A DNA stretch of 64,000 nucleotides from Euglena gracilis (lineage: Eukaryota). The first letter of the stretch is position 1. Each line of letters begins with the position of its first letter. The translations under genes were made by a program, and so were the position numbers. Under the pieces are notes generated by a model, which saw only the letters and a list, made by a program, of their open reading frames with translations, searched no databases and was not told the origin of the DNA. The DNA lies in contig CP154954.1 of NCBI GenBank assembly GCA_039621445.1, forward strand, positions 41,843,572-41,907,571. The letters are read 5' to 3'. Positions 16,260-61,600 of the stretch are shown piece by piece.

Positions 16260-18636
16260 TTGGAACTTCGTGCCTTGTCGCCGGCGTTGACTGACCCTTA
16301 ACTTTCCCTTCGACGCCCAGAAGAAAGGAAAAGAGTTCACGAACAAAGGAGAACCAAGTCAATATAAATTCAATATCCAGAAGGGCACGAACCACGCAAA
16401 TATCAAATGAAAAGTCAATCATCAAATCTCAATTTTGAATTCAACGAAAATGCTGTGGAAAAAAAATTGGAATTATATGGCCGCGGATGTCCTGCAGCAG
16501 TGGCCGCAGCAGCTGTACAACTTGGGGATGCGGTAGACACGTGGAAACCGGTGGCCGTTCTTCCCCCCCCCCCCCAGACCCCGACGCCAGAAATTTCCCA
16601 GCACAACCCCCCTCCCGAGTGACGGCCGCGGTCTTTGGACCATTGTGGCCAGAAGGCCCAGAAAACAGAAGTCAGCAAGTGGGCAAAGGATGGGCCATAG
16701 AGGCCCAAAATGCTTCACAAATGGACATCCAAAACCCACACATGAAGGGCATTGCCCCCCCAAAGGCGCCCAGTGGCCTGCACACAAATTGGTCAAAGGA
16801 TGGGGAGACGGGATCAATGTCAAGGTGATCACCACTGCAGGGGCGATGGGGGCCACTTTTACAAGCAAATCCCCTCAGGAAGGGGCAGAAGAGGTCTGTC
16901 AAGCCCCCCCCCCAATTCATCTGGCACAACAGCCCCTCTCAAGGGGAAAAGGGGGGGCCACTGCAGCCCCCATATTTACAGTGGTTTTGGAGACCAAGAA
17001 TAACTCAAGACCTGGAAGACCAAAAGGTGGATTATGGAAGTAAATTTGCACAGGGAGACCTTGGAGGACAGCAGGGTGGACCCACAGTGGCCACCAAGAA
17101 GCTAAGGAAGTTGCTGGAGAAACCACCCGAGGGACCCACGAGGCCCTATGTCAAAAAAATGGGAAAAAGGGACCCACGGTGGCCCTTTCAATGCTCCAGG
17201 AAGAAAAGGGACCCACAGCGGCCCTTTTGGAGGGAGGGGAAGTAACCCCTCCAACATTCACTTCTCAATTCCCGAAAATTCAATCAAGGGGGGACCCACA
17301 AGGCCCCCCTATGGTATGCCACCAACCACATCAACATTGAGAAGACCTGAAAGACAAAACAGGGGTATTAAGCCCTGTGGTATGTCCTCCAACAACAAGA
17401 CCCTCCAGAGAGGTGAGCAGAGAGGGAGAGAGTGCATGCACATCCCGCCAGAAAAAAATTCCTTTTCCAAGGGCTCAAGCCCTAGGGGACCTAGGGGTGC
17501 AATGTCCAACACCCCAAGCCCAGGCCCCCCAAAATCATCTTATCCAGGAAAAAAATCTTATCCATGGAGTAAAAAATGGGCAGACACCCCCTCCATCAAC
17601 GATCCTAAAATGAAGGACAAACAATGCCCCGCCCAACAACATGTCAACTCATCAAGGATGGAACCCCTGGGTAAGCCCCACCAAAATTGCCCCACCATCC
17701 AAAAACCCAGAGCAAATTAAACCTTCACCGAGCAGAAAAAACACTGTCTGCAGGATTAAGACACTAATCCCCTGGTTTCTGATCTGAAACCAGAAGGGGA
17801 GCAGACGAAATGGGAGACTAATAAGCCATCTGGGTCTGTCGAGAGGAGATAGAGGGAAGGTTCCAAGTAAAACCTTTCAAGCTAGATCACATCCAGCACA
17901 TTTTTCCAGTGTTGGAAAAAGGCCACTGGGCAGCAAAAATAGACCCGAAGGATGCTCACTTCCACATCCCAGTAAGCCAGGTCTTAAGGCCATTTCTAAG
18001 ACATCGGGTGGGGGGGGCAGACCTGGGAATTCCAGGCAGGCTGTTTTTGGCCTGAATGTAATGTCCCAAGTTTTCATGTCAGTAATGAAGACATTCGAAA
18101 AGCTGTGGAGGAAAAGGGGCATCCAAGTTTTTATTTACCTCGAAGATGTTTTAATGGTGGCCCCAACACAAAACATCTTACAAAATCACCTGAACACAGC
18201 GGTCAGGGATTTAATCAAATCAGGATTCAAAATCAACCTAAAAAAGTCCACCCTGCACCTAAATCGTAAATCATCTTGGGTTTTAACTAAACTTACAGGA
18301 CAGAAAATTATAGGTGCCCCCCAGAAAATTAAGACAGTAAAAAAGGAGCTGGGAAAAATGGGCAAAAAGATTACATGTCAAAAAGGCAGCTGGCTGCCAT
18401 TTTGGGCCAAATCAGGTGCAATCTGATGGCCCCAGCCTTTCCAAGGGCCTTTGTGGATGCCCGAGAAAAATTTTTGGTGGAAAATTCCAAAGCCCCCTGG
18501 GACTCAAAACACCCATTTCCCAAAGAATAAAGGACCAATTAAGAGAAATAAAACTTCTGCTGGACACCTGGTGGCAGACCCTTCCCCCAAAGTGCAACCA
18601 GGGAGTTTTGCTCAGACAGAAGCACCCGTGCCTGGG

Positions 18637-22235: not shown

Positions 22236-22710
22236 GGCTGGGCACTCGAATTCATGCGTTCGTTCCATGACCACAAATTCCATGACCACACACTCGTTTG
22301 TTCCCTGGCGTTTTTGGCGAAGGGACAGGCAGGAGGCCTAGAGCTTTCCAGGTCCTTTGCCAAAAACCCTTTCCTCCGCACTTTGTTTGAAGACGCTCGA
22401 TTTAGAGAGGCACGAAAACCCTGAGGACCGAGGAGACACCTCGGGCTCCGCACTTTGCCATTGTGAGGCCATGCCTTGCTCGCCGGCGGTTTGTTGTGTG
22501 ATTGTTCGCTGCGCTGGGTTAGGAGGTCCCGCTTAGTGCCTTTTTTCGCCGGAGTTGGCTGATTCCTAAATTGCCCTTCGACACCCAGAAGAAAGGAAAA
22601 GAGTTCACGAACGAAGAAGAACCGAGAAAAGAAGTCAATATCAATTCAATATCCAGAAGGACACGAACCAGACGAATATCAAATCAAAAGTCAATTATCA
22701 AATTTCAAAT

Positions 22711-23790
22711 TTGACTTCAATGAACAATGCAGTTGAGAAGAAATTGGAATTTCACGGCCGCGGACGTCCTGGAGCAGATGCCGCAGCAGCTGGAGACACT
22801 GCAGATGCGGTCATCACGTGGCAAACCGTGGCCGTTCTTCCCACCCAGCCCCCCACCCCAGAAATTTCCCAGCCCAAAACCCCCCCCAGTGACGGCCACG
22901 GTCCTTGGACCACAGTGGCCAGAAGGCCCAGAAGACAGAAGCCAGCACCAGCCCTTTCTGGGCAAAGAATGGGCCATGGGGGCCCAAAATGCTTCAAATG
23001 CAAAATGCTTGGCCAATCAAAGCCCACACATCAGGGGCATCTCCCCCAAAGGCGCCCAGCAGCCTGGGCACAAATTGGCCAGAAGATGGGGAGATGGAAT
23101 CAAGGCCAAGGAGGTCAACACCACAGGGGCCATGGGGGCCAGTTTTTCAAGCAAATCCCCTCAGGAAGGGGCAGAAAAGGTCTGTCCAACCCCCCCAATT
23201 CATCTATCACAACAGCCCCTCTCAAGGGGACAAGGGGGGGCCACAGCAGCCCCCCCAGATTTCCAATGGGGTTGGAGGCCAAGAAGAAATCAAGGCCTGG
23301 AAGACCACAAGATGGATTATGGAAAAAAATTTATACATGGAAACCTTGGAGACCAGCAGGGTGGACCCACAGTGGCCACCAAGAAGCTAAAGCACCAGCA
23401 GGGTGGACCCACAGTGGCCACCAAGAAGCTAAGGCAGCTGCTGGAGAAATCCCCCGAGGGACCCACAGAGGCCCTCTGCCAAAAATGGGGGAAAAAGGGA
23501 CCCACAGTGGCCCTTTCATTGACCCAGCCCCAGGAGGAAAAGGGACCCACAGTGGCCCTTATGGAGGGAGGGGCAGGAACCCCTCCAACAATTATTGCTC
23601 ACATCCCACTGATTCAATCAAGGGGGGGACCCACAGAGGCCCCCCTATGGTATGTGAACCAACCACATCAACCTGGAGAAGACCAGATAGGCAAAACAGG
23701 GGCATTAAGCCCTATGGTATGTCTTCCAACAACAAGATCATCCAGAGAGTTGAGCAGAGAGGGAGAGAGTGCATGCACATCCCCCCAGAA
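22711..23790 (+). CDS. gag-like ORF1 of copy E with a zinc-knuckle-like motif
   Basis: DGHGPWTTV and CFKCKMLGQSKPTHQGH (copy C ends this motif with HEGHCP). Confidence 0.7.
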
Positions 23791-25961
23791 AAAATTTCTT
23801 TTCCAAGGGCCCAAGCCCTAGGGGACCTAGGGGTGCAATGTCCAACACCCCCAACCCAGCCCCCCCAGAATCATCTTATCCAGAAAATAAATTCAATGGG
23901 GGAAAGAGGGGGAGACACCCCCCTCCATCAAAGGTTGCAAAAAAGCCTAAAATGTCCAACACCCCCAGCCCAGCCCCCCCAAAATCATCTGATCCAAGAA
24001 ATAAATTCCATGGAGGAGAAATGGGGAGACACCCCCCTCCATCAAAGGCTGCAAAACAGCCTAAAATGGTGGACAAAAAATGCCCCCCCAACAACATGTC
24101 AACTCATCAGGGATGGCATTCAACCCCCCTGGGTCAGCCCACCAAAATTGTCCACCCACCCAAAACCCAGAGCCAACCTGGACCTGAACCAGGCAGAAAA
24201 AATACTGTTGGATTACGAAAAAACTGGGTCAATAAACGAGTTTGGGAGTCAGAAACCCAGCATTAAACCCCTTGGTTTCTAATTTCAAACCCAAAAGGGG
24301 AACAACCAAATGGAGAATGATCAGCGACTGCAGAGAATTAAATCAGCAGTTTCAAGTGAAACCTTTCAAGCTGGATCACATCCAGCACATTTTTCCAGTT
24401 TTGGAAAAGGGCCACTGGGCAGCCAAAATAGACCTGAAAGATGCCTATTTTCATATTCCAGTAAGTCCAGGCCTAAGGCCATTTTTAAGGCATCAGGTGG
24501 GGGGGCAGACCTGGGAATTCCAGGCAGGCTGTTTTGGCCTGAATGTAATGCCCCAAATTTTCATGTCAGTCATGAAAACATTCGAAAAGCTGTGGAGGAA
24601 AAGGGGCATCCAGGTATTTATTTACCTGGACGACATTTTGCTGGTGGCCCCAACACAAATCATCTTACAAAATCACCTGAACACAGTGGTCAGGGATTTA
24701 ATCAAATCAGGGTTCAAAATCAATGTAAAAAGTCCACCCTGCAGCCCACCCAAATCGTAAATCATCTTGGATTTCAACTAAACTTCCAAGAGGGAAAATT
24801 ACAGGTGCCCCCCCAGAAAATAAAAACAGTAAAAAAGGAGCTGGGAAAAATGGTGAAAAAAGATTACATGTCAAAAAGGCAATTGGCTGCCATTTTGGGC
24901 CAAATCAGATGCAATCTCATGGCCCTGCCCTTTCTAAGGGCCTTTACGGATGCCCTGGCAAATTTTTTAGTGGAAAATTCCACAGCCCCCTGGGACTCAA
25001 AACACCCCATCTCCCAAAGAATAAAGGACCAATTAAGAGAAATAAAAAACCTGCTGGACACCTGGGGGGGCAGACCCTTCCCCCAAGGTGCAACCAGAGA
25101 GTTGCACTCAGACAGCAGCACCCATGCCTGGGGGGGGCTGGACATTCGAACAGGAAAAACTGTGCAAGAATTTTGGAGGGAAAACTCCATTCTGCACATA
25201 AATGTCAAAGAATTAAGTGCAGCAATAAGCACAGTTCAAAGCCTAAGCAAACCAGGAGAACTGTGTCCCTATCCGTGGACAATCAAGTAATTTACTATTA
25301 CTTAACAAAAGGGGGGGGCAGAAAAGACCCCTTCAATTCCATGCTAAGACCCTTCTTCAAATGGTGCATGGAACACAACATAAACCTGCAAGTAAAGTGG
25401 GTCCCCTCAAAAGAATGCCTGGCAGACCCCATAAGCAGGTGGGAAATGGACAGGGGGGATTATTCCCTAGACCCCCAACTTTTTCAATGGCTGAGGCAGC
25501 AGTTCAAAAATTACATAAGCCTGAAAACAGACCTTTTTGCCTCACCAGGCAACAAAAAACTGCCACAATTTGTGGCCAGGTGGCCCCACTGGGAAGCCAC
25601 AGCAGTGGATGCATTGCAATGTCCACTGGACAACATGGGGGGCCTTTATGCAAATCCCCCCTGGTCTTTAATTCAAAAATTTCTCCCCAGATTAAGAAGG
25701 TTTCCACAAGCCAAAGTTTTGATGGTCACCCCCTACTGGGATTCAGCCACATGGTGGCCCCAGTTAATAAAAATGAAAGTACCAGGGTCCCCCTGCCTGA
25801 AAATCACCCCTTACAAGGGTATGTTCACCAATTGCAGGGGGGAAGAAATGCCACCCCCCAGGTGGCCCCTACTTTGCATGGTTTGCTCAGGCAAATTCTG
25901 GAGGGGAAACAAATACAAAATACATCCATTAGCGATTTCCTGGGAAGAAACCCCAGCTTAA
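22727..25961 (+). CDS. pol of copy E: RT, RNase H, DNA N6-adenine methyltransferase (apparent frameshifts)
   Basis: WRMISDCRELN, IDLKDAYFHI, FGLNVMP, IYLDDILL; LHSDSS, HINVKEL, VDNQ, LADPISR; DLFAS...DAL...LYANPPW. Confidence 0.93.
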
Positions 25962-27087
25962 AGCGTTATCAAAGCGCTTTTACGCTTTTATGGGTGATTT
26001 TGGACAAAATGGGGGTACCCCCCCCTGAAGCCACCACTGACCAAGTGGTTGACGCTTTAATTCAACTGTTTCAATTTTCAAAGGCCCAAGCACGCAATGC
26101 ATACAGTGCTATGCTATTAATCCCTGGCTTTGGGGGCCTGAGGTTCCATACCATGTTAGCACCTTATAAAAGGCTTTGGAACCAAAACCTGGAGAAATAT
26201 GGTGCATTCTGGGATCCCCTCCCAATCCTCCTGGGGCTGGCACAGTCCCCCCTGCCCTCTGATATTTGTACATTGCGTACACAACTCATTTTCTGTTCAC
26301 GCATCCTCTGTTTATACAGAAGTTCAGATTTGGCACAGGTCCAAAGAACCACCAGTGTGTTGGGGGGGGCACCCTACATCAAAATTAAACGTAAAGGGCA
26401 AAAGCTCCATAAGTGGGAGAGAGTTGTCTCCATTCCCCAGTGCCCCCAAATCAGCCCCTTTCATTTAATGATGGCTTATGTGGCAGCAACACGTTTCTTT
26501 ATGAAACCTGGGGGCCCCCTGTTAATTACGTTAAAACCCCCCTACAAAGCCATTAAGGCAGATACCATTGCTTCTATCACCAAAGAATTTTTGACCAAAC
26601 AGGGGGTACCCCCCAGGTTTGGGGACCCCACTCCACCAGAGGGGCAGGGGTTGGTTTACTCAAAAAATTGGGCCTTTCTGCCCAAGAAGTTTGTGAAATT
26701 GGTCAATGGAAGGGGGTGGAGGCTTTCACAGCCCACTATCAAAGACTTGGTGCCCAAGGTTCTTTGGAGAATGCCCTGGCCCCCCTTTTTTCAGTGCACA
26801 ATCTGGCCTCACAATGGCAAAGTGCGGAGCCCGAGGTGTCTCGTACTCCCTCGAGGCAGACCGAGAAGGGAGGAAGGGACACCGAGGGCGAAGCACAAAG
26901 ACATTGTGAGCCCGACCCCCCCACCCACATACGAAAATTTGTCTTCAAACGCCCTCGGTCAGAAGATGGGGGCCAGGGGGGGGCAGAGGGGGGGGGACCC
27001 CCCCAGGGGAAAAGACAGCGCCATGGTCGCCACGTCGGAGACAATGCAGCCAACTTCGGCGAGGCGGCACTAAGCGGGACCTCCTAA
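25361..27087 (+). CDS. Tyrosine recombinase of copy E (one frameshift near 26610)
   Basis: LYRSSDLA and KRKG in 25361..27073; HSTRG, IGQW and FTAHY in the frame ending at 27087. Confidence 0.93.
26805..26910. repeat. Copy E ICR
   Basis: 26805-26842 is the reverse complement of 22433-22470; 26843-26910 is the reverse complement of the right end up to 27206. Confidence 0.95.
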
Positions 27088-27357
27088 CCCAGCGCAGCGA
27101 ACAATCACACAGCAAACCGCCGGCGAGCAAGGCATGGCCTCACAATGTCTTTGTGCTTCGCCCTCGGTGTCCCTTCCTCCCTTCTCGGTCTGCCTCGAGG
27201 GAGTACGAAAAGAGCCTCCCCGTTGTTTAAAACTTGCGGTCTTGAAGAAAAAAACAGGGGTACCCCTTGAAGGCAACCAAAGCTGCCGCAGCTCCCCCCC
27301 AGGTCCCCATTCGCGAGGCCGGGACAGTGCTCCCAGTGGTTTGGTTTTGGTATGCCC

Positions 27358-38233: not shown

Positions 38234-39119
38234 GTAGCCAGAGTTTTGCTTGGTCCCCCGGGGGATCACTTTTCACAGGCCCACCCATGTATGACCCCCA
38301 GGGGTGGGTGGGTGGGTCGACCCACCCACCCACCTTGGTGCTGGCCACTGAACCACCTCCCTGGGGGGCTGGGGGGGGGTTATGTGGGTCAGTCTGGCCT
38401 GGCCAAATGCCGTGCTGGAATTTTGAACAGTTTTGAACGGTTTGAACGGACACGCCAACCCAATTGAATGCTGATGACTCCTTGGACAGGTTGGAATTAA
38501 TCCCCTGGGCTGCCTGGGCAGCCCAGGCAGCCTTTAACCAGGCTGCTTTTCAAGACCCCTGGAGGGGGGGATCCCCCCACCCAGCCCGGCGCGGGGGAAT
38601 CGGGCCGTCTGAGGGCACTTCCAAAAAAATTTCGATGCAAAGCGCCAAAACCCACACTCAGGCCTCTGGCCCCGGACCCCCTCCCCTGTGTGCACTGTGC
38701 AAGGGTTTTTTATCTTTTTTAAGACCGGGGGGGGGGTCCCCTCCCACCCACCCACCCCCTGGGCTGGGGGGGCCCTGGGGGGTCCCAGGGGACCCACAAA
38801 AAAATGGCCGAAAAATCGCGAAAAGTGCTAAAAATAGCACTTTTTCGGCGCCTTCGGCGCCGAAAAGTATATCCCACCCCCCTCTGGGGGGACCCCCCTC
38901 CCCGGCTCGGCCGGACATACCCCCCTCCCCCCCCCCCGGGGGTCAACGACTAAAAAACCCCTGCCACTGTGGCTGATTGTTTGGTGCCTTTTATCCCTAT
39001 TTCTGGCCTGGTGCTGTTTTTCGCCTCTGGCCCTTTTTGTCTGTGTACGTGGAGGTGGTCAGACTGGCGGGACTTACCTTGTTTATGACGCCGGCCACCA
39101 AGCGCCCGCCAGGCACATA

Positions 39120-42835: not shown

Positions 42836-44399
42836 CTTGGCAGATTAAAGGAAGGTGGTGGGGGGTTTGCCTGGGTGCTGTGTTGAGGTCCTGGACAGGG
42901 CTGTACGGGAAAGCCTGGTGGGGGGGATGGGTTGACCCTCTCACAAAGTTCGTTCGGCGCCAAAGGTGTCGAAGGAAAACTTTGACCTAAAGATTGGCGC
43001 CCCCGGAAATATGGGGAGGCCAGGTGGGGGGGGGGGCGGTCGGACCCCCCGCCAGCATGGGGGTGGGGGGGGGGGGGTGGTCGACCCCCCAACACCCATG
43101 GGGTTGCAGGGATTCCCATACAGCCATGGTCCCGACGTACACCATATTGAAGCCTGTGAACTACCCATCAAAAAAAGGTTTCCACTCATTTTCCTGAATT
43201 CCCCCTCCTTCCTGAGTTTTGAGCCCCTCAAAATCTAAATGGCCCACAACTCCGGAATCCCGAGGAGTTGTGGAACTTGGTGCCTTGAATTGCCCATGAA
43301 AACAAGATGTCCAGATCAAAGCTAGCCATTTGGACACCCAGAAAAAGTTATTTTACGATCTTGCTACCAGCTCAGCCCCATTATGTTTGGGAAGACACAA
43401 ATTCCATAAAAAATGCAGCTTTTTTGCAGAGTTGGCATCAATGCAGCACACAGCCAACGTCACATTGGCGTCAATAAGGCAAAAAAAATCAGGGGACCTC
43501 GTAAAGACTTTTGTACCAGTGTGTTGTAAAGACTTATGCACCAGACCACCGCCGCCATAAGCAGCGGTCCGCTACAGTCTGGCAGGCTGTATTTTGGTCA
43601 GGTGCCGACCCCACCCCGAGGGGGGGGGGGGGCGGGGCGAGGTGGGTGCTTTGGACGCGATCACGCAGGTGGGTGCTTTGGAACCCACCTGCGTGATTCT
43701 TTTTGTCATTTTCTTCATGTTTTCTTGCCATCAAAATGGGGGGGGGGTGCACTTGTAGTGGACTGGAGGGTTCGGCAGCAGAGGGTGCGTTTTATTTGGA
43801 CCCTGTGCTTGTTGAGGCCAGACGTTCATTCTCCAATGCCATGTGATGTACTTCTTGGGACCTCCCCTATGTTGGGGGGAACAAGTTTTTCCAAGCTTTA
43901 TTTGTTTACAAAAAAATCCTTTTGTCCTAAAAATTCCTTTTCCAAAACACAAATTGGCAAAGTTTGCAACCCTTGAAAAAACCGATTGCCCCTTTAAAAC
44001 CAACCCTTTTTGGACCGACAAACGACTGAGAGCCACCAAGACCAAAGAAAATGCTTATTGGGGGGGATGTAATGGACATTTACAATCATTCAACGACCAC
44101 TGGCTTGTTGCAAAAAAGTACAAGGTCTCATGGTCAAACAACTCATGCACTTACCATTTTCCAAACCGGATATTTTTCGATTCCAATCCTTGAATTTTGA
44201 AAAGCTTGTGCGAGTCTAGATTTTTGATGAGAGTCTCTCAAAGTGAAAATTGTTCACCTTCAACTCCATATAAAAAGCTTCATGGTTTGTGCTCTCGTTT
44301 GTCCACCAAAAAAGCATCTACATTTTCAATACAAATTAAAATTGAATGGAAAAAAAGATACAAAATGAAGCCCCTGTGGAGGAAGCAGTCATCATCACC

Positions 44400-44755
44400 A
44401 GAGGCTTCTCTTCGGCTGCACCGACATCAACGTCTGTAACTGGGAGTCTGCGAATAACAGGGCCGACGTCGGCCCCCAGCAGGTCCGCCCAGTACGGGTG
44501 GTTTACCGGCACGCGGTGGCGGAAGAAGAAGCCCCGCAGCAGCTGCTGCCGCCGCAGCGTCTCCTCCGGGAACGACGATGCCTTGCCGTACGTCATGCTG
44601 GCCGGGCTGTGGCGCGACATGCTGCGATATCGGTTGCTCACCACTGCAGCGGTACGGTGGGGCAGCAGCGCCGTGACCGTCTTCCAGTCGATCGGTCCAC
44701 TCTGCGATTCCACAGCACTGAGAATGGTCTGGTCCTCCTCCGCCGTGAACGCGTC
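44400..44755 (-). CDS. Host gene exon encoding a Myb/SANT DNA-binding domain (3' boundary approximate)
   Basis: FTAEEDQTILSAVESQSGPIDWKTVTALLPHRTAAVVSNRY at ~44627-44749 fits the Myb repeat consensus. Confidence 0.82.
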
Positions 44756-44811
44756 GGGGCCAGGCTGCCACCCACGAGGGCACCCATATGGTATCCGTGC
44801 GCAGCCTGGGC
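44756..44811 (-). other. Nonconventional intron, 56 bp
   Basis: gcc-CAGGCTGC...GCAGCCTG-gcccc (perfect 8-bp stem); removal resolves the apparent frameshift to FCSY|DAFTAEED. Confidence 0.85.
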
Positions 44812-45081
44812 GTAGCTGCAGAAGACCCGCCGGAAGATGTCACCGACGAGGTGAGTAATACGTTTCTTCTTGCTGCACAGTGTCTGCGCCGTTGGCCACA
44901 GCTTGTCCAGGTCGAGCCAGCCCTCCTCCTGAAGGCAGTCGGCGATGCACCGGACGACGGCCTCGAGGTGGCCCTCCTCCGGGGTGGCGGGGGTGATGTA
45001 GGGGACGGGGGCCAAATATCGCAGTGACTGGGGCTGGGCCAGAGGGTACTCCACCGTTCCTCTTAGGTTCAGCCCATATTC
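44812..45081 (-). CDS. Host Myb/SANT-domain gene, exon (90 codons)
   Basis: EYGLNLRGTVEYPLAQ...IFRRVFCSY, in the frame of ORF 44638..45054. Confidence 0.8.
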
Positions 45082-45169
45082 CCTGACAGGCCTTTCTGAT
45101 CTTTGAACTGAATGCCGCCCAAAAACAAACGAGAGACTTAAAAAAACAACTGTATACCTATGGAAGGCC

Positions 45170-46405
45170 TAACCCCCCCAAAAAATAAGACCCGGGTCTT
45201 ATTTTTGGGTCCTTTTCTGGAGACCTCCAGGGGGGGTCATATATTTTGGGGGAGTCTTATTTTTGGATTTTTTCTTGACCGACCCGGGCCCGAAAAAAAT
45301 GTCATTTTTCAGGTTCCAAAAAGCATCAAATATTTTCCTTTGGCGCTGCGCCATGTGGTGTGAGTTGACATTTAGCATGTTTTTTTGCACCCCAAAGATC
45401 AGAAATTTTTTGAAATTTCATCATTTTTGTAATTTTTCAGGGAAAATCTTCGGCTCTTCGCGCCGTCAGGGGGGGTAGCCTCCAGCCACCCTTTGGGCAG
45501 GGTCCAAATTAAAAAAAAAACTCGTCGATGGTCGATGGAGGGGAGTCCGGGGCAAGAAAAAGGCTGCTGGCTGGACCCCCCTTCCTGGGGATGGGGTGAC
45601 ATTTAGCATGTTTTTTTGCACCCCAAAGATCAGAAATTTTTTGAAATTTCATCATTTTTGTAATTTTTCAGGGAAAATCTTCGGCTCTTCGCGCCGTCAG
45701 GGGGGGTAGCCTCCAGCCACCCTTTGGGCAGGGTCCAAATTAAAAAAAAAACTCGTCGATGGTCGATGGAGGGGAGTCCGGGGCAAGAAAAAGGCTGCTG
45801 CTGGCTGGACCCCCCTTCCTGGGGATGGGGTGCTCAAGTGACGCCCTGATTGGAGGACCTTTTTTGATTTTCTTTTGGGGTTGTCAAACTTAGAAGACCT
45901 GCTTTCCACGCAATTTCTCCTCAGCGGCAAAAAAAAAACTCACGTGGTTCTTGGTGGTGTGAAGAAACACAAACTCTGTGGAAACCCCATTTTTTCGATA
46001 GGGTGGATTCACTGAGGTTTTGCGATGGATTTGACCCCCTTTGAACGCAGGCGAGGGGAATCCCCAGCATGTGCACACAGTGCACATTTTTCGAGGGCGA
46101 TTTTTCGATTTCCCAGTGAATTTTTAGGACAATTTTATGTGGAGGCCAATTTTGATATTGCAAAGCCATGTCCTGGGAAGTTGCCACTGAGGACTGTGCC
46201 TCATGGGTTGACATGAACATCAAAAGGACGGTCCGTTCCGTCTGGATCTGGGGGGACGTTCATCGGGTATGGGGTGCATTTTGTGTTTGCATTTTGCTTC
46301 AAAGGTGACAAGCACGACAGTCCGGGGGGTCTTATTTTTGGGGGGTCTTATTTTGGTTTTCTGCTCGATCGGCCCAGGGTGGGGTCTTATTTTTGAGGGG
46401 GTTTA
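45170..46405. mobile_element. Non-autonomous TIR element with subterminal GGGTCTTATTTT repeats
   Basis: taacccccccaaaaaataagaccc / gggtcttatttttgagggggttta. Confidence 0.6.
45366..45832. repeat. Tandem duplication, ~231-bp unit x2
   Basis: 45366-45596 nearly identical to 45597-45832. Confidence 0.95.
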
Positions 46406-49400
46406 CCGCAAGTTCCTACCACGCAATTATTCCCAGACATTCTGAGGGGTCACTTTCCACTTTAAAAAAAAGCCTATCCAGGTTCTCATATAAAAGCGTC
46501 GGTCAGGTTGTGCCATGCACATAAATTGCAGCCATAAATTCGGTGGGGAAATGAAAAAAATCTAAAGAAAAGTATAATAAATTGGGCCGGGCGGCCTAGG
46601 GTTGGGGACTGGGATCACCAGTCTGCTGAGGGGATTGGACCATCCATTTTATGGTAAAACCGTCAAATTCCTCTTGTGTTCTCATTGGTCATGACAAAAC
46701 CATCGATTTCTCATTTTCCCCGCAAAATCCTGGGAAGTCTGGGTCATGCATAGGATTAGGGTTTGGGTTCGGATTTGGCCCAAAACCAAACTGAGGACTG
46801 AACTTGGCCAAAATTTGGGCCTGATTTTGAACTTTGTTAGCCTGAAATTAGGCACAACTGCCTAAATTCAGCCCAAAATTAGCGTCACCCTAAACCTATT
46901 CCAAACCCTGATCCTATCCCCAACCACCAACCCTGTGTGCTGTGTGGGCACCATGAATCCTTGGGTCATCTCCGGGTGGCGGGGCGTTGCCAGCCTGGGT
47001 GTGGATCTCAGGCCCACTTCGTTACCCAGGCGGGTCTCACTGCCCCCTCCACAACGAAGTGGGACCCCCCCCAGAGAGTCTCACCAGTTCATGGCTGCCG
47101 CTTAGGTGGCCTAACTTGCCTTAATGTTGGAAATGGCTGGGGCATTGCGCAAATGCACAACCTCCAAAAATTTTCCAATCTCCAATCCCGAGTTGTGATT
47201 TCCAGGAAAACCCATGTTGGTGTGCTGGATGCCCTCACAGCCTGGCATGAAAGCAACAACTTAGAACTTTTCTGTCTGTGGGCATAGGTCTCCCAAGGTC
47301 CATTGTGCATGAACCTGACAGCGCTGGGCAATGAAATGAGTGGACTCCATTGAAAAGATTCTGTGTTTGCGCAACGGAGAACCTAAATTTTGAATTGCAA
47401 AAAATAGAAATATTGTGCATTTGCAAAATGTTTTTTAATTAGGTGTAACTCTGAATGTGGGTGATCATTGCCCAAAATCATTGCATTTGCGCAATAATAA
47501 TAAGCACCTTCATACTTAAATTTGTTTTTGTTGTGTATCTGTGCAATGGGTGTCAGACCTTTTTCTTTTTATCAACCCTGGGGCTACTCTTGTCTGTGTG
47601 GTGCAGACAGTTAAATATGAGCTCTGCATCACCCTCTGGGGGGGGGGGGCTGAAAAACAAGCTCCACAGACAAGTCAGCGTGGGACGGAAGAATGGTTCC
47701 ACCACCCATGGGGCACCCTCTGGGACAGGGGATGCCTTGTGGTATGGAGAGCCTGCCCATATGTTGTTCATCTGCACAACGGCCACGCGGATTTAGAATT
47801 TAAAAATTCCATGTCCATCGTGTATTTTTGCATTGAAACATTTAAACTTTCGTTCTAAATCAACTTGCTTTCTTTTGAAAAAAAAAGTTTGCACCCTCCA
47901 AGGGTGGGTGCTGGGTATTTTTTTTTTAAGTTTGGACCCCCCGAGGAGGTTCAAATTTGGTCAGGTGGAGTGGGTCTCCTGCCGGGGGCGGGGTTTGCTT
48001 CTTTTTCGACGCGAAGCGCCAAAATTTTTTGGATCCCAATTTCCCCCCCCCCCCCCCCCAAAAGCACCCCCTCAAGGGGTCGGGGGTGGGTGGGTCAGTT
48101 CAGGTCTCCCCTGAGTCTTTAAAAAGAAACCCCTGGCAGGCCGGGGGTGGGGCATTTGCAACCCGGGGGGGGGGGGTTGGGTTTTGGAATGGTTGCGCTG
48201 TACATGCACACCCGGGCATTGAAGGCACCGAGGGCCCGAAAATGGTCATTTGGAAGAGAAAGGTGGCTTGGTTGGCAGGCACTGGGACCCAAAACCGATC
48301 CCGGGGGGGGGAATCTCACCTCACAACAAAATATATTATCTATTTTCTCATTTTCTGTGCCGATTACACATATGTGCAACAGAAACACATATTTCAAAAT
48401 GCAAATTAGCTTGGTCATTGGCAATTGCGCAACAATCACCAATTTTGGCATCACTGTGGGCAGGAGAACGTTCCTGGAACCATCTCAACTCCAGAGCAGA
48501 CAAAATTGAAACGCAGAACAGCCTTGCTTGGGACAGGCAAACACCACCCTGGTGTGTGTCTGGACCCGGGAGGGAGAAAGCTCTGGAGCTTCCACAAACG
48601 ACCCCGAACGACCCTCGGGGAGGCTCTAGATGCGCCTTGAACGTTGTTTGAGGAAGCTCTATAACCTTCTCATATGTCGTCAGAGGTCTTTCGAGGAGGC
48701 TCTAGAGCCTCCTCCCACGTCCATGCATGCACGTATCACGAGACCCGGGACATCAAATGGGGAAGCGGAGGCAACAAAACGTTTTTGGTACACGACCCTC
48801 CCTGTGTCATGTCAAACTCACCCCTTTTGCGTGCATGTTGACCTAACACTATCTGTTCAAATAGCAACGTCAGAATACATGATACTGGAGTGGATGCTCT
48901 TAAGGCAACAACCACCCCTGCGCACTCCAGTGTTTCCAGTTCCAATACTTCCAAAAACACCTTGGATGGCCAAAGTGGCACTTAAGGATATCACCAAAGC
49001 ATGCACCCCAGGCGGTCCGTGGTCCGGGACCTGGCGGTGCTTGAAACCACCAGCCGGAGCGACATGCACACACCGCACGCACGCACGCACGATCCCGCGC
49101 ACCTGCGCACGTAAGAACACCCCCCCCCTTCTCTGGCGCAATTGCGCCCGTTTTGACCCCCAATCGCACGCATTTGAGGGTGAGTTCAGGCGCAACTGAA
49201 TGCGACCTGACCCCTCCAGTGTGTCGCGTGCCTCGGCACTGGGGCACCCAGAACAAGCGGCGACACTGAGAGAACCAACAGGGACACGCACTCTTCACCA
49301 CTAACATCCAGTGGTTGCAGAACAATGAATCGACCACCGAAAAACTGTGGAACACACACCAGGTGACAAGAACTCGAGCCCTCCGCCGCCCCTGTTCGAG

Positions 49401-51676
49401 ACCCCGAGCCAGAGGGAACACCACTCAGCACCAAACCACGCGCACCTACGCCTGCGGATGTACACACTCCGTGCGCACTTGCGTGATTAAGAGATGGATG
49501 AGGGACCCTGTGGCCCGGGATGAAAACGCAGAAAGAGTGAGGAAACACATTGTGCCGAAGCGCAATAGCCCATATTAAAAAAGAGAAATGAAAACACGCG
49601 GCTAACATGCAATCTGAATGAACAAGCAGTGCATTATATAGGCATACTCACCAAGCCCACACACAGGCTTTGCAGAGAGGCCCCTGACACACCGTAACAC
49701 ATCAATGGAACCCAATGCTCAGCACAAATGTCGTATGCATGTCATGTGTGTTGGTTATCAGCTCTTCGTCTGCGTAGCCCCTATTTTGAAGCCCCTGCCA
49801 ACAGACACTACGCAGGGAGGCCACCACTGTCCCCAGGCGCAGCACCAGGAGGCTGAGGCCTTGACTCTGGCCATGGGAGAGGGGTCTTTGGTGGTCGGGG
49901 TCGCGCGCATGTGCGCCAGATTGGGGATCTCTGAGGAGAGAATCACACATCTGAAAACGTGCTGAACGAGGGGGGTTAAACCTCATTGAGCTGCACGGCG
50001 AAAACATAATGCACCCTTGGTTCTGAAACACACCCAAACCGCCCTAATTTATTGCGATGGCTGACAACTGGTACCACAGTCGGCAGGTCTGATTTTGAGA
50101 TCCCTGAAATAAACCCCCTCCACAGACCTGGTTTCTGGATTGCACGCAACATGAACACGAGTCGAAAATGGACTTGCCAAAAACAAGAGGGCATCCTGGA
50201 CCCAAATTCAAAAAAAACGAGGCCTTGTCCATATAATTTCCTTTGGAAACACGCGTAACACTGCCAAAAAAAGGTCATCATTTCTGGAGTTTCTGGGGCG
50301 GCAGAGCAGCACCGTGCCCAACAAACACTGTGCCATGAAGCGAGGGTGATGGAGTCTCCATTCCTAAAACACGGACGCAGTTGTGCAGGCGGCCCACCTC
50401 ATGGGGCGCTGTAGACCTCTCACGCAGTCGCACTGAAGGTTTCCAAAGAGGGGCTGCAACAGGGTTTTGAAGGCGAGCCTGAAAACTACCCTCAGGTGCG
50501 CACGGTCCTGCGGACCAGTCGATACATCGCCTCCGGATACAAGCCCTGGGGTACCCCCTTCCAGACATCAACTTCCGTTCCCTTGAAAATCCTCCACTGT
50601 TCTAAGACCAGAGGCATTGCCTTCTCCTCTGTTTCCCGGTGAAAGCAAACCCTCTGCCTAGTGCAAACAGCCATGCCATCTGGAGGTTCTTCTGCCTGAG
50701 ACTGTCACATTGACAAGCTAAATGGGGGGCTCATTCATCACTTTCTAAACCCAACACCCTCCAGCCCAGGGGCACATCTGCGCGCGCCTCATGTACCAGC
50801 GTTTTCCACTGGCGTTCAGCATCGGAGACGCTGCGGGACGACTTTAACACCCTTCCCACAAAGCACCGCAACCGTCGCCTCACCCTGGCCATGCTCACAG
50901 GGCTGGAGGCTGCACACCCTCTCCCTGTCAACAGCCCCAGATCGTGCGTAGATGCGCGCGCTTGTTGTGTTTAAACGGGTGCACCTGGTGCGTGGATTGA
51001 CTGGAGGGGCACACTCAGCTTACCCCACGTCAAACCACCGGTTGGGAGTGTCCTCATCTGTCTTACCAACTGTGGGCAGATGCAGGGTCTGTACCACGGC
51101 AGGGATCACGCATCTCCTCCCGCCAGCATGCACACACGACGTCATCCAACGCATCGACACAACTCCAGCCCCACTACTGCACGCATGTCCAAAATGGCCC
51201 TCAATGATCATCCGCACACCCTCTGCGGCGCCCAAAGCTCCCAACGCTCCAACCTAATGGCACCCTGCACAGCACACCCCACGCCTTGCACAGCTGCGGC
51301 ATTTGGGGGGAGGGTTTATTTGAATGAGAAGCTTATCAGGATGTGATCAGCCTAACACGGGGAAAATGCACTACTATTAGCCTGTCGTAAAAATGCACAA
51401 AGGTATGCAAAAATGTGCAAAATCTGAACAGAGAGAGAGAGAGAGAGGGAGATAAAACACAAAAATCACAAAAAAATGCAAAATCGCCAAAAAAAGCAAA
51501 AAAATAGAAAGAAGAAATCATATGGAGATACGAGGGCGGGAAGAGGAAGCTTTCAAAAAAGGCCAACAAATTTCAAAGAAAGAAAACGCAAAAAAAAAGC
51601 CCAAAATGGCCAAAAAAACAAGGTCAAAAATTGGGCAAATCACAAAAAAAGGGTGTGCCGAAAGCAACACAACAAA

Positions 51677-58600: not shown

Positions 58601-61600
58601 TGAACAACCTTACATTGGGCTGCAGTACACGGTGCCAGGAGCACTGTGCCCCACAATTAGGGTCAACGCAGGGGGTTGTGTCTGGTTCCACACACAGTGC
58701 TCACGGGGTTGGCACCCCGAGAGCGAAACACGCCTGTCACCACCTTCGGCATCATTCCCAAAAAACGGTCTGTAAACACAGAATTAATTCACAATCCAAA
58801 TGGACTCAAAGAAGCGAACACCACTGGTTAGTCCTTGCCCAGTCCCTGCCCAAATTTTATCCAGGCCCTTGAGACCGTGAGACGGGCACAAACACACCAC
58901 AACAAAAACTTGCCGATAAACCCAGAATTTTTTCCGTTCTGCTTTTTCTGTGTATTCCACTGTGTCGTACCAAGGGAAAATGGATGAGAAAAAGACTTCA
59001 GTGCCCGAGGAAATTCCTCAGTGACGGGCACCCTAATTCCCAACTGCAGTCAGCAGTCTTTCATGGCATGAGTGAAAAGCTGGTGAATGCGTAGATGCGC
59101 AAGAAATCGTCCTGTGCCTTTCTTTGAATGACAGCCACACCGTCGAATATTCACTCCCAGTTGGTTATTCCTCTACCCACGCCAACTCCCCCCCACCTGG
59201 CCTGGGTTTGAAACCACAAGGCTGAGGTGTGACCTCCCTGCGAGGATCGAATGGTGTCCGAGGACGAGGCAGCCCTGGAGCGAAGCACGGCAGAGGAGGA
59301 CCACCACCTGTGGCCTTGCTGGCAACAAACGTCACCCACCACACAGAACCCTTATTTATCATGAACTCAGAGTCGACGCTCCAACACTGCAAACTACACA
59401 ACCCCTGGCAAAGGGACCAGGGAAAGCACATATGCACACACCTTCTCCACACACCCCATCCGCAATGGCTGCAGTCAAACATGGCACATCGGGGTGAATG
59501 CGCACATGTGCATTCCCTTCTTGTGTCTCCCCTTAAAGCACCCTGGTGGGAGGTTGCTACGCAGGGCCATGTCAAACAACTCAGCACACAAGGTGGAGGC
59601 ACAGCCCAGGAGACATACACCCTACTCTGGCGGGCATCCTCCTGTGCAATGAGATGCCTCTGAAATCGTTGACAAAAAGGCCAGTAGTGCACCATGGGGG
59701 TGGCCCTGCCACAATGCTGTGCTGGCACTGGGTTCAAGGGTGCGAGACACAGCTCCCCTCAACACAGAGCATGCGCACCTGCGCACTCCTCCTCATGAAA
59801 TGCGCAGTTGCGCACTATTGTGGATCCCCAGCCCTGCTACCCTCCTCATCTCCTGCAGATAGAATCACACAGCCAGCGAGGTTGCATATGGCTTCGAATT
59901 GTTTGATGCCGAAAAGTCAGCAATTTTGGCCAATTTTGGCGTGGTATCTGGACCATTGCCCGGCCACAAAACCGAAACCCGGCCCCCCTTCAGTTTCGAG
60001 GCGGGAGAGGGGGGGGGTCGACCCCCCCCCCCTCAAGGCTTTCCATACATCCCTGGGTGGGGGAGGGGAGGCAGTTGCGTTTCGATCAAACGTCCCAATG
60101 AGGCCCAACCCAGCCCTACGCCAGAGTCCTCAATGTGACATTGCGACACACAACACGGGGGCTGAGCGGGGGCTGCCACCGCCACTGACAAGCCTCCCCC
60201 GGCGGTCCCTTTCCGACCAGTGCCTGCCTCTCCGTGTTGTGAATGGGGGCACTGGCTGACTGGCCAACGGGGGGCCCCCCCCCCCCCCCCCGGCAAGGCC
60301 TCGCTGGGCCCAAGGAGACGCGGGACGCCTCGATGCGGCTGCTGTTCCAGCCTTCCACCTCCCTGTCCTACAGCCTGGCCCCCAACTCACAGGCGCCCTT
60401 TTCTCCCGCCGCCTCACCCACCCCCCCCCCCTTCCGGGGTGTGTCAGGGTCCCTATTGTAAGGCCTGTCTGATGACAGTTTTCTGGGGGGGGTCTGGCTA
60501 AATTTCTATTTCAGCCATCCCTTTCTGCATGTATGGCATGCAAACAGTCTCAGCCTGCTGCCTCATTTTATTCGGATTTTTTTTGACAATTTTGGTGTGG
60601 ATCGTAAATCAAGGAGTTGTTGGTCGAAATCCAAACTCCGAATGCCCTCCTGGCGATTTTTTTTGGAAATCTTCAAAACACAGTTTCTTTTTATGGAAAC
60701 AGGGTATCAACAAGGAAGGGGTCCAAGAAACCGGTGTTGTGTTTTTTTGGGGTTACCCACCCTGAAAAATCAAATTCTCTGGGATTTGGGTGTTCTTATC
60801 CCCCACCCACCCGTGCTACAAAGGATCAGCAAAATCTCTGGGTGGACTGGTTGACATACGGGCAGTTGAGGGGGCGATTGCCAAGGGGTAATCCCCTCCA
60901 AATATAACCAATTTTGTAACCGATTTTCGGTTTAAGGGACGGCGCAAAGCGCCAAACTGAAGTCCCCCCCCCCCGATCAGCAAAACTGTGAAATCGCCAG
61001 TTTTGGGCACATCCCCTCCCAAATGGCACAGGCTGGACCATCCAATGGGGAATTAGAAGACTGGACCACTGACAGCTTCCTTTCCGCTTGAGGTATTTTT
61101 GTGGATTTCGTGAAAACTGATTTTGGTTTTTTTCTTATTGTGTCATTCTTGGGGGGACCTGTGTTGCATGACGTTTTCTTTCGTTGGAGAAAATGTTTTT
61201 TCCATGTCTCTGCCAACATAATTTCGAACAGCCAAAATTTTCGCTCAGGGTCCCAATTTTTTGGGGCTGTTATTGAAACCCCTCTCTAATGCAAAAGCAA
61301 GGCCAACTTTGACAAGCCTTTCAACCCAGCCAATCCCAAGCCAGGGGCCAGCCAGCAACGCCTCCGTAACGTACCCCGTGGTCAGGGAGGCCCCCGCCAG
61401 GGCGGGCCGGCTGGGGGCGGGCCGGCCTCCCTGCCGCCGGCGTTCGGCACGCCGTGGGAGGCGCCGTGGCACGCCGCGGTCTGCCGGCAGGGCGGGCGGG
61501 ACGCCCCGTGCCTCAAGCCACGGGTGGCGCGCCTCAACTTCGACGGCTCGGCGGACTCGCTGCCCCGGATCCTGCTGAGAAGCCGCCCAGGCGCTCCCCT

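Follow-up and report, generated by a model that had tools for sequence, protein, structure and literature searches.

The 56-nt stretch at positions 44756-44811 is in all likelihood a nonconventional (NC) intron of the euglenid type and the last of three NC-type introns that interrupt a four-exon, 367-codon Myb-like gene running from 54444 to 44336 of the window, i.e. the whole 64,000-nt stretch of Euglena gracilis DNA analysed here. Its excision is predicted from the DNA and from homologous proteins. This intron (intron 3) very probably belongs to a known class, in which it is nothing unusual, and the Myb-like gene that contains it had not been modelled before. What carries the argument for the predicted intron is the junction seen in the homologs, not the match to the published splicing code. 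The features of the gene are listed in Table 1.

Table 1. Exons, predicted introns and stem arms of the Myb-like gene (positions in the window)
Feature	Position	Strand	Length (nt)	Evidence and remarks
Exon 1	54444-54264	-	181	ATG at 54444-54442; tblastn, P0004 3-64 on 54444-54259
Intron 1 (predicted)	54263-54146	-	118	Homologs run through WSD, followed by S/T, without gap
Exon 2	54145-53895	-	251	tblastn, P0004 59-143 on 54158-53904, joint E 1.4e-19
Intron 2 (predicted)	53894-45064	-	8,831	Boundaries inferred; tblastn and mafft colinearity
Exon 3	45063-44812	-	252	Ends ...FRRVFCSY; phmmer match to P0004, P0005
Intron 3, putative nonconventional (non-GT-AG)	44756..44811	-	56	GCC-CAG...CTG-GCCCC, then G; homolog junctions without gap
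Intron 3, terminal stem 5' arm	44801..44809	-		CCAGGCTGC, positions +3..+11; CAG motif at +4..+6
Intron 3, terminal stem 3' arm	44760..44768	-		GCAGCCTGG, positions -13..-5; CTG motif at -8..-6
Exon 4	44755-44336	-	420	Includes stop 44336-44338; tblastn, P0004 233-336 on 44755-44441

The coding sequence of the model comprises 1,104 nt from ATG to stop, and its frame contains no in-frame stop, as compared with eight and five in the two alternative frames. GC3 (0.73-0.84) exceeds GC1 in each of the four exons, and GC1 in turn exceeds GC2 (0.46-0.49); the values for exon 3 are 0.83 (GC3) and 0.46 (GC2). A C-rich pyrimidine tract with an AG is located just upstream of exon 1 and may represent a trans-splice acceptor. 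The three-intron gene model of the first-pass annotation agrees with the model checked here by homology. An open frame is nevertheless no evidence in this region: of the six frames of 44336-45168, five stay open over more than 140 codons, so that an insert of any length other than a multiple of three would "repair" some frame. Therefore, independent evidence is required for the junction.

Such evidence comes from a search with exon 3 alone (44812-45072, minus strand) against 1.84 billion representative proteins, in which three proteins (P0003, P0004 and P0005) were found at E<=0.001; no Pfam family was found in exon 3. P0003, 90% identical, reads through a closely related copy without splicing, whereas the phmmer matches P0004 (428 aa, E 3.4e-6) and P0005 (459 aa, E 3.7e-5) are only distantly related. 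Residues 4-87 of the query correspond to residues 149-232 of P0004, so that the last residue of exon 3 (query residue 87, Y at 44812-44814) is aligned to P0004 residue 232, and tblastn places residue 233 on 44755. Likewise, residues 255 and 257 of P0005 fall on 44815 and 44755. Across the point of intron 3 the homologs read FCSYDGFT (P0004) and FCSAEPFT (P0005) without a gap. The N-terminal 143 residues of P0004 are found at 54444-53904, 9 kb upstream, and a three-way alignment of the model with P0004 and P0005 is colinear throughout, all three junctions being free of gaps. P0005 was called on a contig of 840,740 nt, and P0004 and P0006 on contigs of ~2 kb. Two other intron candidates in this part of the gene were rejected: a conventional GT..AG intron of 59 nt (44506-44448), since its translation, VNHPYWADLLG..., is conserved in both P0004 and P0005, and a 47-nt intron (45075-45029) that would rebuild an ATG, since the alignment with the homologs continues across it and the N-terminus is encoded by the true exons at 54444-53895.

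On the minus strand, intron 3 begins with GCC-CAG-GCTGC and finishes with GCAGC-CTG-GCCCC. Its terminal stem is formed by CAGGCTGC (+4..+11) and GCAGCCTG (-13..-6), perfect over 8 bp from +4 and extended to 9 bp by the extra pair +3:-5; an inverted-repeat search returned the same arms (9 nt, 100% complementary, 32 nt between them). The stem at +4/-6, described in the first-pass annotation, is thus confirmed as a perfect 9-bp stem, and it is present in both the minimum free energy (MFE) fold and the centroid fold. The total folding energy is ordinary in this G+C-rich sequence: the 56-nt intron has a z of -0.83, a stability equalled or surpassed by 36 of 200 shuffles, and a 76-nt stretch has a z of 0.25, with 119 of 200 shuffles at least as stable. 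Removal of 44811-44756 would give ttc tgc agc tac / gac gcg ttc acg, i.e. FCSY/DAFTAEED, and the registers -1, 0 and +1 yield an identical mRNA because of a short c/g repeat at the junction. With the intron retained, the frame would end at a stop 57 codons further on, at the cost of the Myb domain. That excision would turn an apparent frameshift into a junction after FCSY, as had been proposed, is borne out by the sequence and by P0004 and P0005, in which there is no gap. The stem together with its position is beyond chance, as the boundaries set independently by the homologs coincide with the splicing code.

According to knock-in mutagenesis in E. gracilis, NC splicing requires 5'-N3-CDG-/-CH'G-N5-6, followed by R in the exon, together with pairing beside the motif (Nomura et al. 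2025, PMC12501133). In this code, CDG at +4..+6 is complementary to CH'G at -8..-6 or -9..-7 (PMC12501133), and the E. gracilis NC consensus has been given as CCAGG at +3..+7 and CCTG at -9..-6 (Gao et al. 2024, PMC11170887). In E. agilis, NC introns are reported to make up 71.8% of introns, and Euglena genes can contain both conventional and nonconventional introns (PMC12501133). Intron 3 has CAG at 44808-44806 and CTG at 44763-44761 (minus strand) in the places of CDG and CH'G, an N3 spacer of GCC, an N5 spacer of GCCCC, and the purine G at 44755 as the first exon base. Pairing continues past the trinucleotide motif for five further stem pairs, and both CCAGG at +3..+7 and CCTG at -9..-6 are present. 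The borders in the code register are GC...CC, and the other two equivalent registers are also without GT/GC-AG. This exact match to the published Euglena noncanonical code argues for membership in the known class, and it is unlikely to be due to chance, because an 8-bp stem, one of three allowed starts and the exact length are all needed, and hits of this quality are sparse in the window (see below).

Compared with the NC introns described from Euglena and other euglenids (Milanowski et al. 2014, 2016; Gao et al. 2024; Nomura et al. 2025), intron 3 shares the non-GT-AG borders, the CAG/CTG pairing, the 3-nt 5' spacer, the 5-nt 3' spacer and the purine at the start of the next exon. It is also alike in the extended terminal stem and in the "slidable" junction that results from a short direct repeat, and the occurrence of several such introns within a single gene is repeated in this Myb-like gene. 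No difference in sequence was seen; intron 3 is known here from DNA and homologs.

The code alone is no proof of an intron. Hairpins of the code type (N3-CDG...CH'G-N5-6, then R; stems of at least 8 bp; 25-150 nt) gave 56 register hits over both strands of the whole window (128,000 strand positions), about three times the mean of 17.6 (range 7-30) in 10 Markov-1 simulations. This enrichment counts in favour of the NC-intron reading, but matches to the code also arise by chance in this CAG/CTG-rich sequence. One such match, at 44671-44538, likewise has an 8-bp stem but falls within the Myb domain, which excludes an intron there. Other hairpins of this type with lengths of 54-60 nt occur at 48879-48933, 49765-49818, 50078-50133 and 61378-61436; those within 48879-50133 were rejected as introns, the translations around 48.7-50.6 kb not being coding-like. 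In addition, Rfam and tRNA scans gave no match in the window. Indirect signs that would fit a Euglena-like host are the intron type, the large and repetitive genome (~1.5 Gb of unitigs per DNA run, with very high-copy repeats) and the enrichment of hairpins of the code type.

Exon 4 encodes a Myb-like DNA-binding domain at 44621-44752, followed by the conserved block HRVPVNHPYWADLLG. The domain starts at the second residue of the exon, two residues past the junction; residues 2-45 match PF00249 with E 2e-6 and 28.2 bits, above the curated cut-off of 24.4, and the c-Myb structure 1h88_C in PDB is matched with E 1e-8. The homologs match the Myb profile more weakly, under the cut-off. Compared with Myb/SANT proteins (PF00249; c-Myb R1), residues 2-45 of exon 4 fit both the repeat profile and the c-Myb structures, but here there is one recognisable repeat, with F for the first conserved W, and the remainder of the protein represents a family of very few members (three matches in 1.84 billion representatives). 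Intron 3 had been said to hide a Myb domain. This holds insofar as excision would link the upstream exon to the Myb-like exon; the domain itself is located wholly in the downstream exon and is found by Pfam without splicing.

The apparent frameshift can hardly be an assembly or sequencing error with an unreal 56-nt insert, a reading to which we give almost no credence. The first-pass annotation had named a 1-nt assembly error as the observation that would overturn the intron; DNA contigs from two runs of different studies (X1 and X5) are colinear with the window over 44766-44920, across the 5' junction, with no differences and no indel in the insert. Meanwhile, P0003 and P0007, which come from other assemblies and are ~90% identical, are unspliced read-through ORFs carrying an insert of equal length, and a 1-nt error cannot explain 56 nt that are missing from the homologs. 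P0003 and P0007 have Val in place of Ala at the intron codon gcg, which, judged from the proteins, would imply a change of C+11 to U that keeps a G.U pair. The length of intron 3 is thus kept in at least three sequence variants. That intron 3 is a conventional spliceosomal intron, or a multi-copy introner spliced by the ordinary spliceosome, is very improbable, though somewhat less so than an assembly error. Intron 3 is short, and the two kinds of intron are reported to occur side by side in Euglena genes (PMC12501133), but its borders are GC...CC, no equivalent register gives GT/GC-AG, and splicing at internal GT..AG pairs would fail to produce the junction seen in the homologs. As for an introner, no further copy of intron 3 was found in the window, and the DNA depth over it resembles that of the flanks, with no excess.

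The most serious competitor, which we still regard as unlikely, is that the 56-nt hairpin is an unspliced insertion, such as a MITE relic or a hairpin insert, in a dead or silent Myb-like pseudogene and has been kept because the locus is unexpressed. Consistent with this, no RNA read was mapped to 43900-45125 in two raw-read runs, each sampled at ~5-6%; however, this RNA sampling is shallow and covers few conditions. Searches of protein databases found no spliced protein of the gene, only unspliced ORFs. The copy behind P0003 and P0007 differs at 7 of the 19 residues just upstream of the junction. Furthermore, two sequence variants are present at approximately equal depth in the DNA runs (44233-44674 and 45019-45070), which may be either haplotypes or near-identical paralogs. 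Five variant differences fall in the Myb exon, four of them nonsynonymous and one synonymous, and P0001 bears the variant residues; the gene is thus possibly silent or under weak constraint. On the other hand, removal of the three inserts leaves 367 open codons with a uniform GC3>GC1>GC2 order, the insert has every sequence element of the experimentally defined code in the very register set by the homologs, and its length is the same in at least three sequence variants. The reading of 44756-44811 as an NC intron is favoured on these grounds.

If intron 3 is removed in the manner described in published work on Euglena, its ends would pair in the pre-mRNA, with CAG (+4..+6) bound to CTG (-8..-6) and the pairing extended to 9 bp, and this would bring the two junctions together. 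The machinery, probably non-spliceosomal, would then cut 3 nt before CAG and 5 nt after CTG, ahead of a purine. The exons would be joined as ...FCSY/DAFT... and the intron released, reportedly as a circle.

Intron 1 appears to be a good example of a young MITE-like intron, and a much better case than intron 3. It carries terminal inverted repeats (TIRs) of 14 bp with one mismatch (54151-54164/54247-54260), abutted by an exact 8-bp duplication, GTCGGACT, at 54143-54150/54261-54268, and it is slidable in a 12-nt direct repeat (54142-54153/54260-54271). Its fold of -65 kcal/mol has a z of -3.22, and none of 200 shuffles is equally stable. In the code register it reads ACT-CAG...ATG-GTCGG, then A, which is the "CAG-nnn" class that accounts for ~6.6% of E. 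agilis introns (Dataset S7). Partial copies of the element are present at 100-227 of the window, one stretch being 87% identical over 55 nt; the copy has the same GCTTGTGCTTA terminus, preceded by CAT where intron 1 has CAG. Intron 1 thus shows the TIRs, the exact duplication and the further copy by which MITE- or DNA-transposon-derived introns are recognised.

Among the 258 inverted repeats in the window, intron 1 alone has an exact 8-bp flanking repeat. A search for TIRs with exact flanking repeats yielded intron 1 and one 6-bp case only, and shifted controls give similar short repeats. An inverted repeat at 38699-38964, with 14-bp arms and an exact 6-bp direct repeat (cactgt), is possibly a small transposon. 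Another at 26841-27208 has arms of ~70 bp, composed of 54 perfect base pairs from CAG...CTG and a further 16 outward through the palindromic CCTCGAGG. The 8/8 "duplication" around its 54-bp CAG...CTG inverted repeat (26857-27192) was rejected as an artefact, the 8-mer being a palindrome inside the ~70-bp inverted repeat.

The boundaries of intron 2 are provisional, because it has a stem of only 3 bp in the register CTG-CAG...CTG-AACCTA, then A, because an alternative in-frame register exists (53897-45091), and because the only X1 contig at 45070 has G instead of C (plus strand), changing the putative CTG motif to CTC. The same change would be synonymous (Leu) if 45090-45064 were exon. Within intron 2, just upstream of exon 3, lies an extremely high-copy repeat (45174-45320), for which the summed depth of X1 contigs is ~4.4-5.8e5 as compared with ~40-160 on the gene; the few RNA reads mapped are all within this repeat. 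A tandem repeat with a 231-nt unit (2.0 copies, 98% matches) is also located in intron 2, at 45366-45832.

The 8-mers flanking the stem of intron 3 (gctacgcc and gccccgac) match at five of eight positions, those of intron 1 at eight and those of intron 2 at two, so that the counts in the first-pass annotation are reproduced. Its description of the intron 3 flanks as a decayed 8-bp duplication is unsupported as stated. At shifted registers around comparable stems of the window, five or more matches occur in 3.9% of cases, and 4 of 76 de-duplicated code-like stems reach this level in place (P=0.35), without excess, in a test that is weak because most of these stems are probably not introns; with stems of at least 9 bp, the count is 2 of 24 (P=0.25). 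The 5/8 match of intron 3 is real but weak, and not clearly beyond chance. An age series from MITE to host intron had also been suggested, but three introns cannot establish one. A transposon ancestry of intron 3 is possible, and no other copy of it was found in the 64-kb window.

Previous studies have proposed MITE-like elements as a source of NC introns (Milanowski et al. 2014, PMC3935182), described repeats resembling target-site duplications (TSDs) as frequent at NC intron junctions (2024 Mobile DNA review, PMC11282704), and recorded short direct repeats at 84.4% of introns (Nomura et al., PMC12501133). Therefore, the general idea of a MITE origin with TSD-like junction repeats is not new. 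Terminal inverted repeats are common to the inserts studied here and to the MITE-derived introns or introners of Micromonas, Fritillaria and Amoebophrya (PMC11282704). In intron 1 these are joined by the exact duplication at its flanks and by another, partial copy in the window, as in a recent transposon turned intron, whereas for intron 3 the window holds no other copy, the depth shows no excess and the flanks match at only 5/8. In contrast to introners, which are removed by the spliceosome via GT/AG signals, the inserts in the Myb-like gene lack those signals. The spacers of the NC code, 3 and 5 nt, add up to 8 nt, so that cuts at these points remove the element and exactly one copy of an 8-bp duplication. 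The exact 8-bp duplication of intron 1 sits in precisely this register.

The DNA transposons of the hAT superfamily and their MITEs make 8-bp target-site duplications, and several of their termini start with CAG. It is conceivable, if on balance doubtful, that NC splicing is an RNA-level "precise excision" of hAT-like MITEs ending in CAG...CTG, with intron 1 at the young end and intron 3 an old member that has kept its stem, the intronic duplication halves having decayed to 5/8. The likeness lies in the NC spacers, whose sum equals one duplication copy, in the CAG...CTG termini, and in intron 1, where the exact 8-bp duplication stands beside the 14-bp inverted repeats. As differences, no transposase was found, and such a duplication is present at 1 of the 258 inverted repeats of the window. 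A link between NC introns and hAT elements was not found in the papers on NC introns that the literature search listed; published supplements may already hold sliding-distance data relevant to the 8-bp question.

A Pfam search of 30 long ORFs of the window gave only a match to RVT_1 and a sub-threshold match to Dam. The former is a reverse-transcriptase domain (PF00078, E 7.6e-9) in the ORF 17788-18426 (plus strand), probably a fragment of a retroelement. The latter, to the Dam DNA N6-adenine methyltransferase family (E 0.0013, 18.9 bits against a cut-off of 28.1), is in the long ORF 24729-25961 (plus strand). This ORF belongs to a series of long ORFs on the plus strand (22570-27073), in which no other Pfam family was matched.

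That 44756-44811 would be an intron is in itself routine for Euglena. For annotation, the value is that the Myb-like gene can be modelled only if NC introns are recognised, as ordinary gene finders would call a frameshift here. If the 8-bp register holds genome-wide, the MITE-origin hypothesis would become a testable claim on which transposon superfamily seeded the NC introns, and it would also bear on why the splicing machinery cuts where it does.
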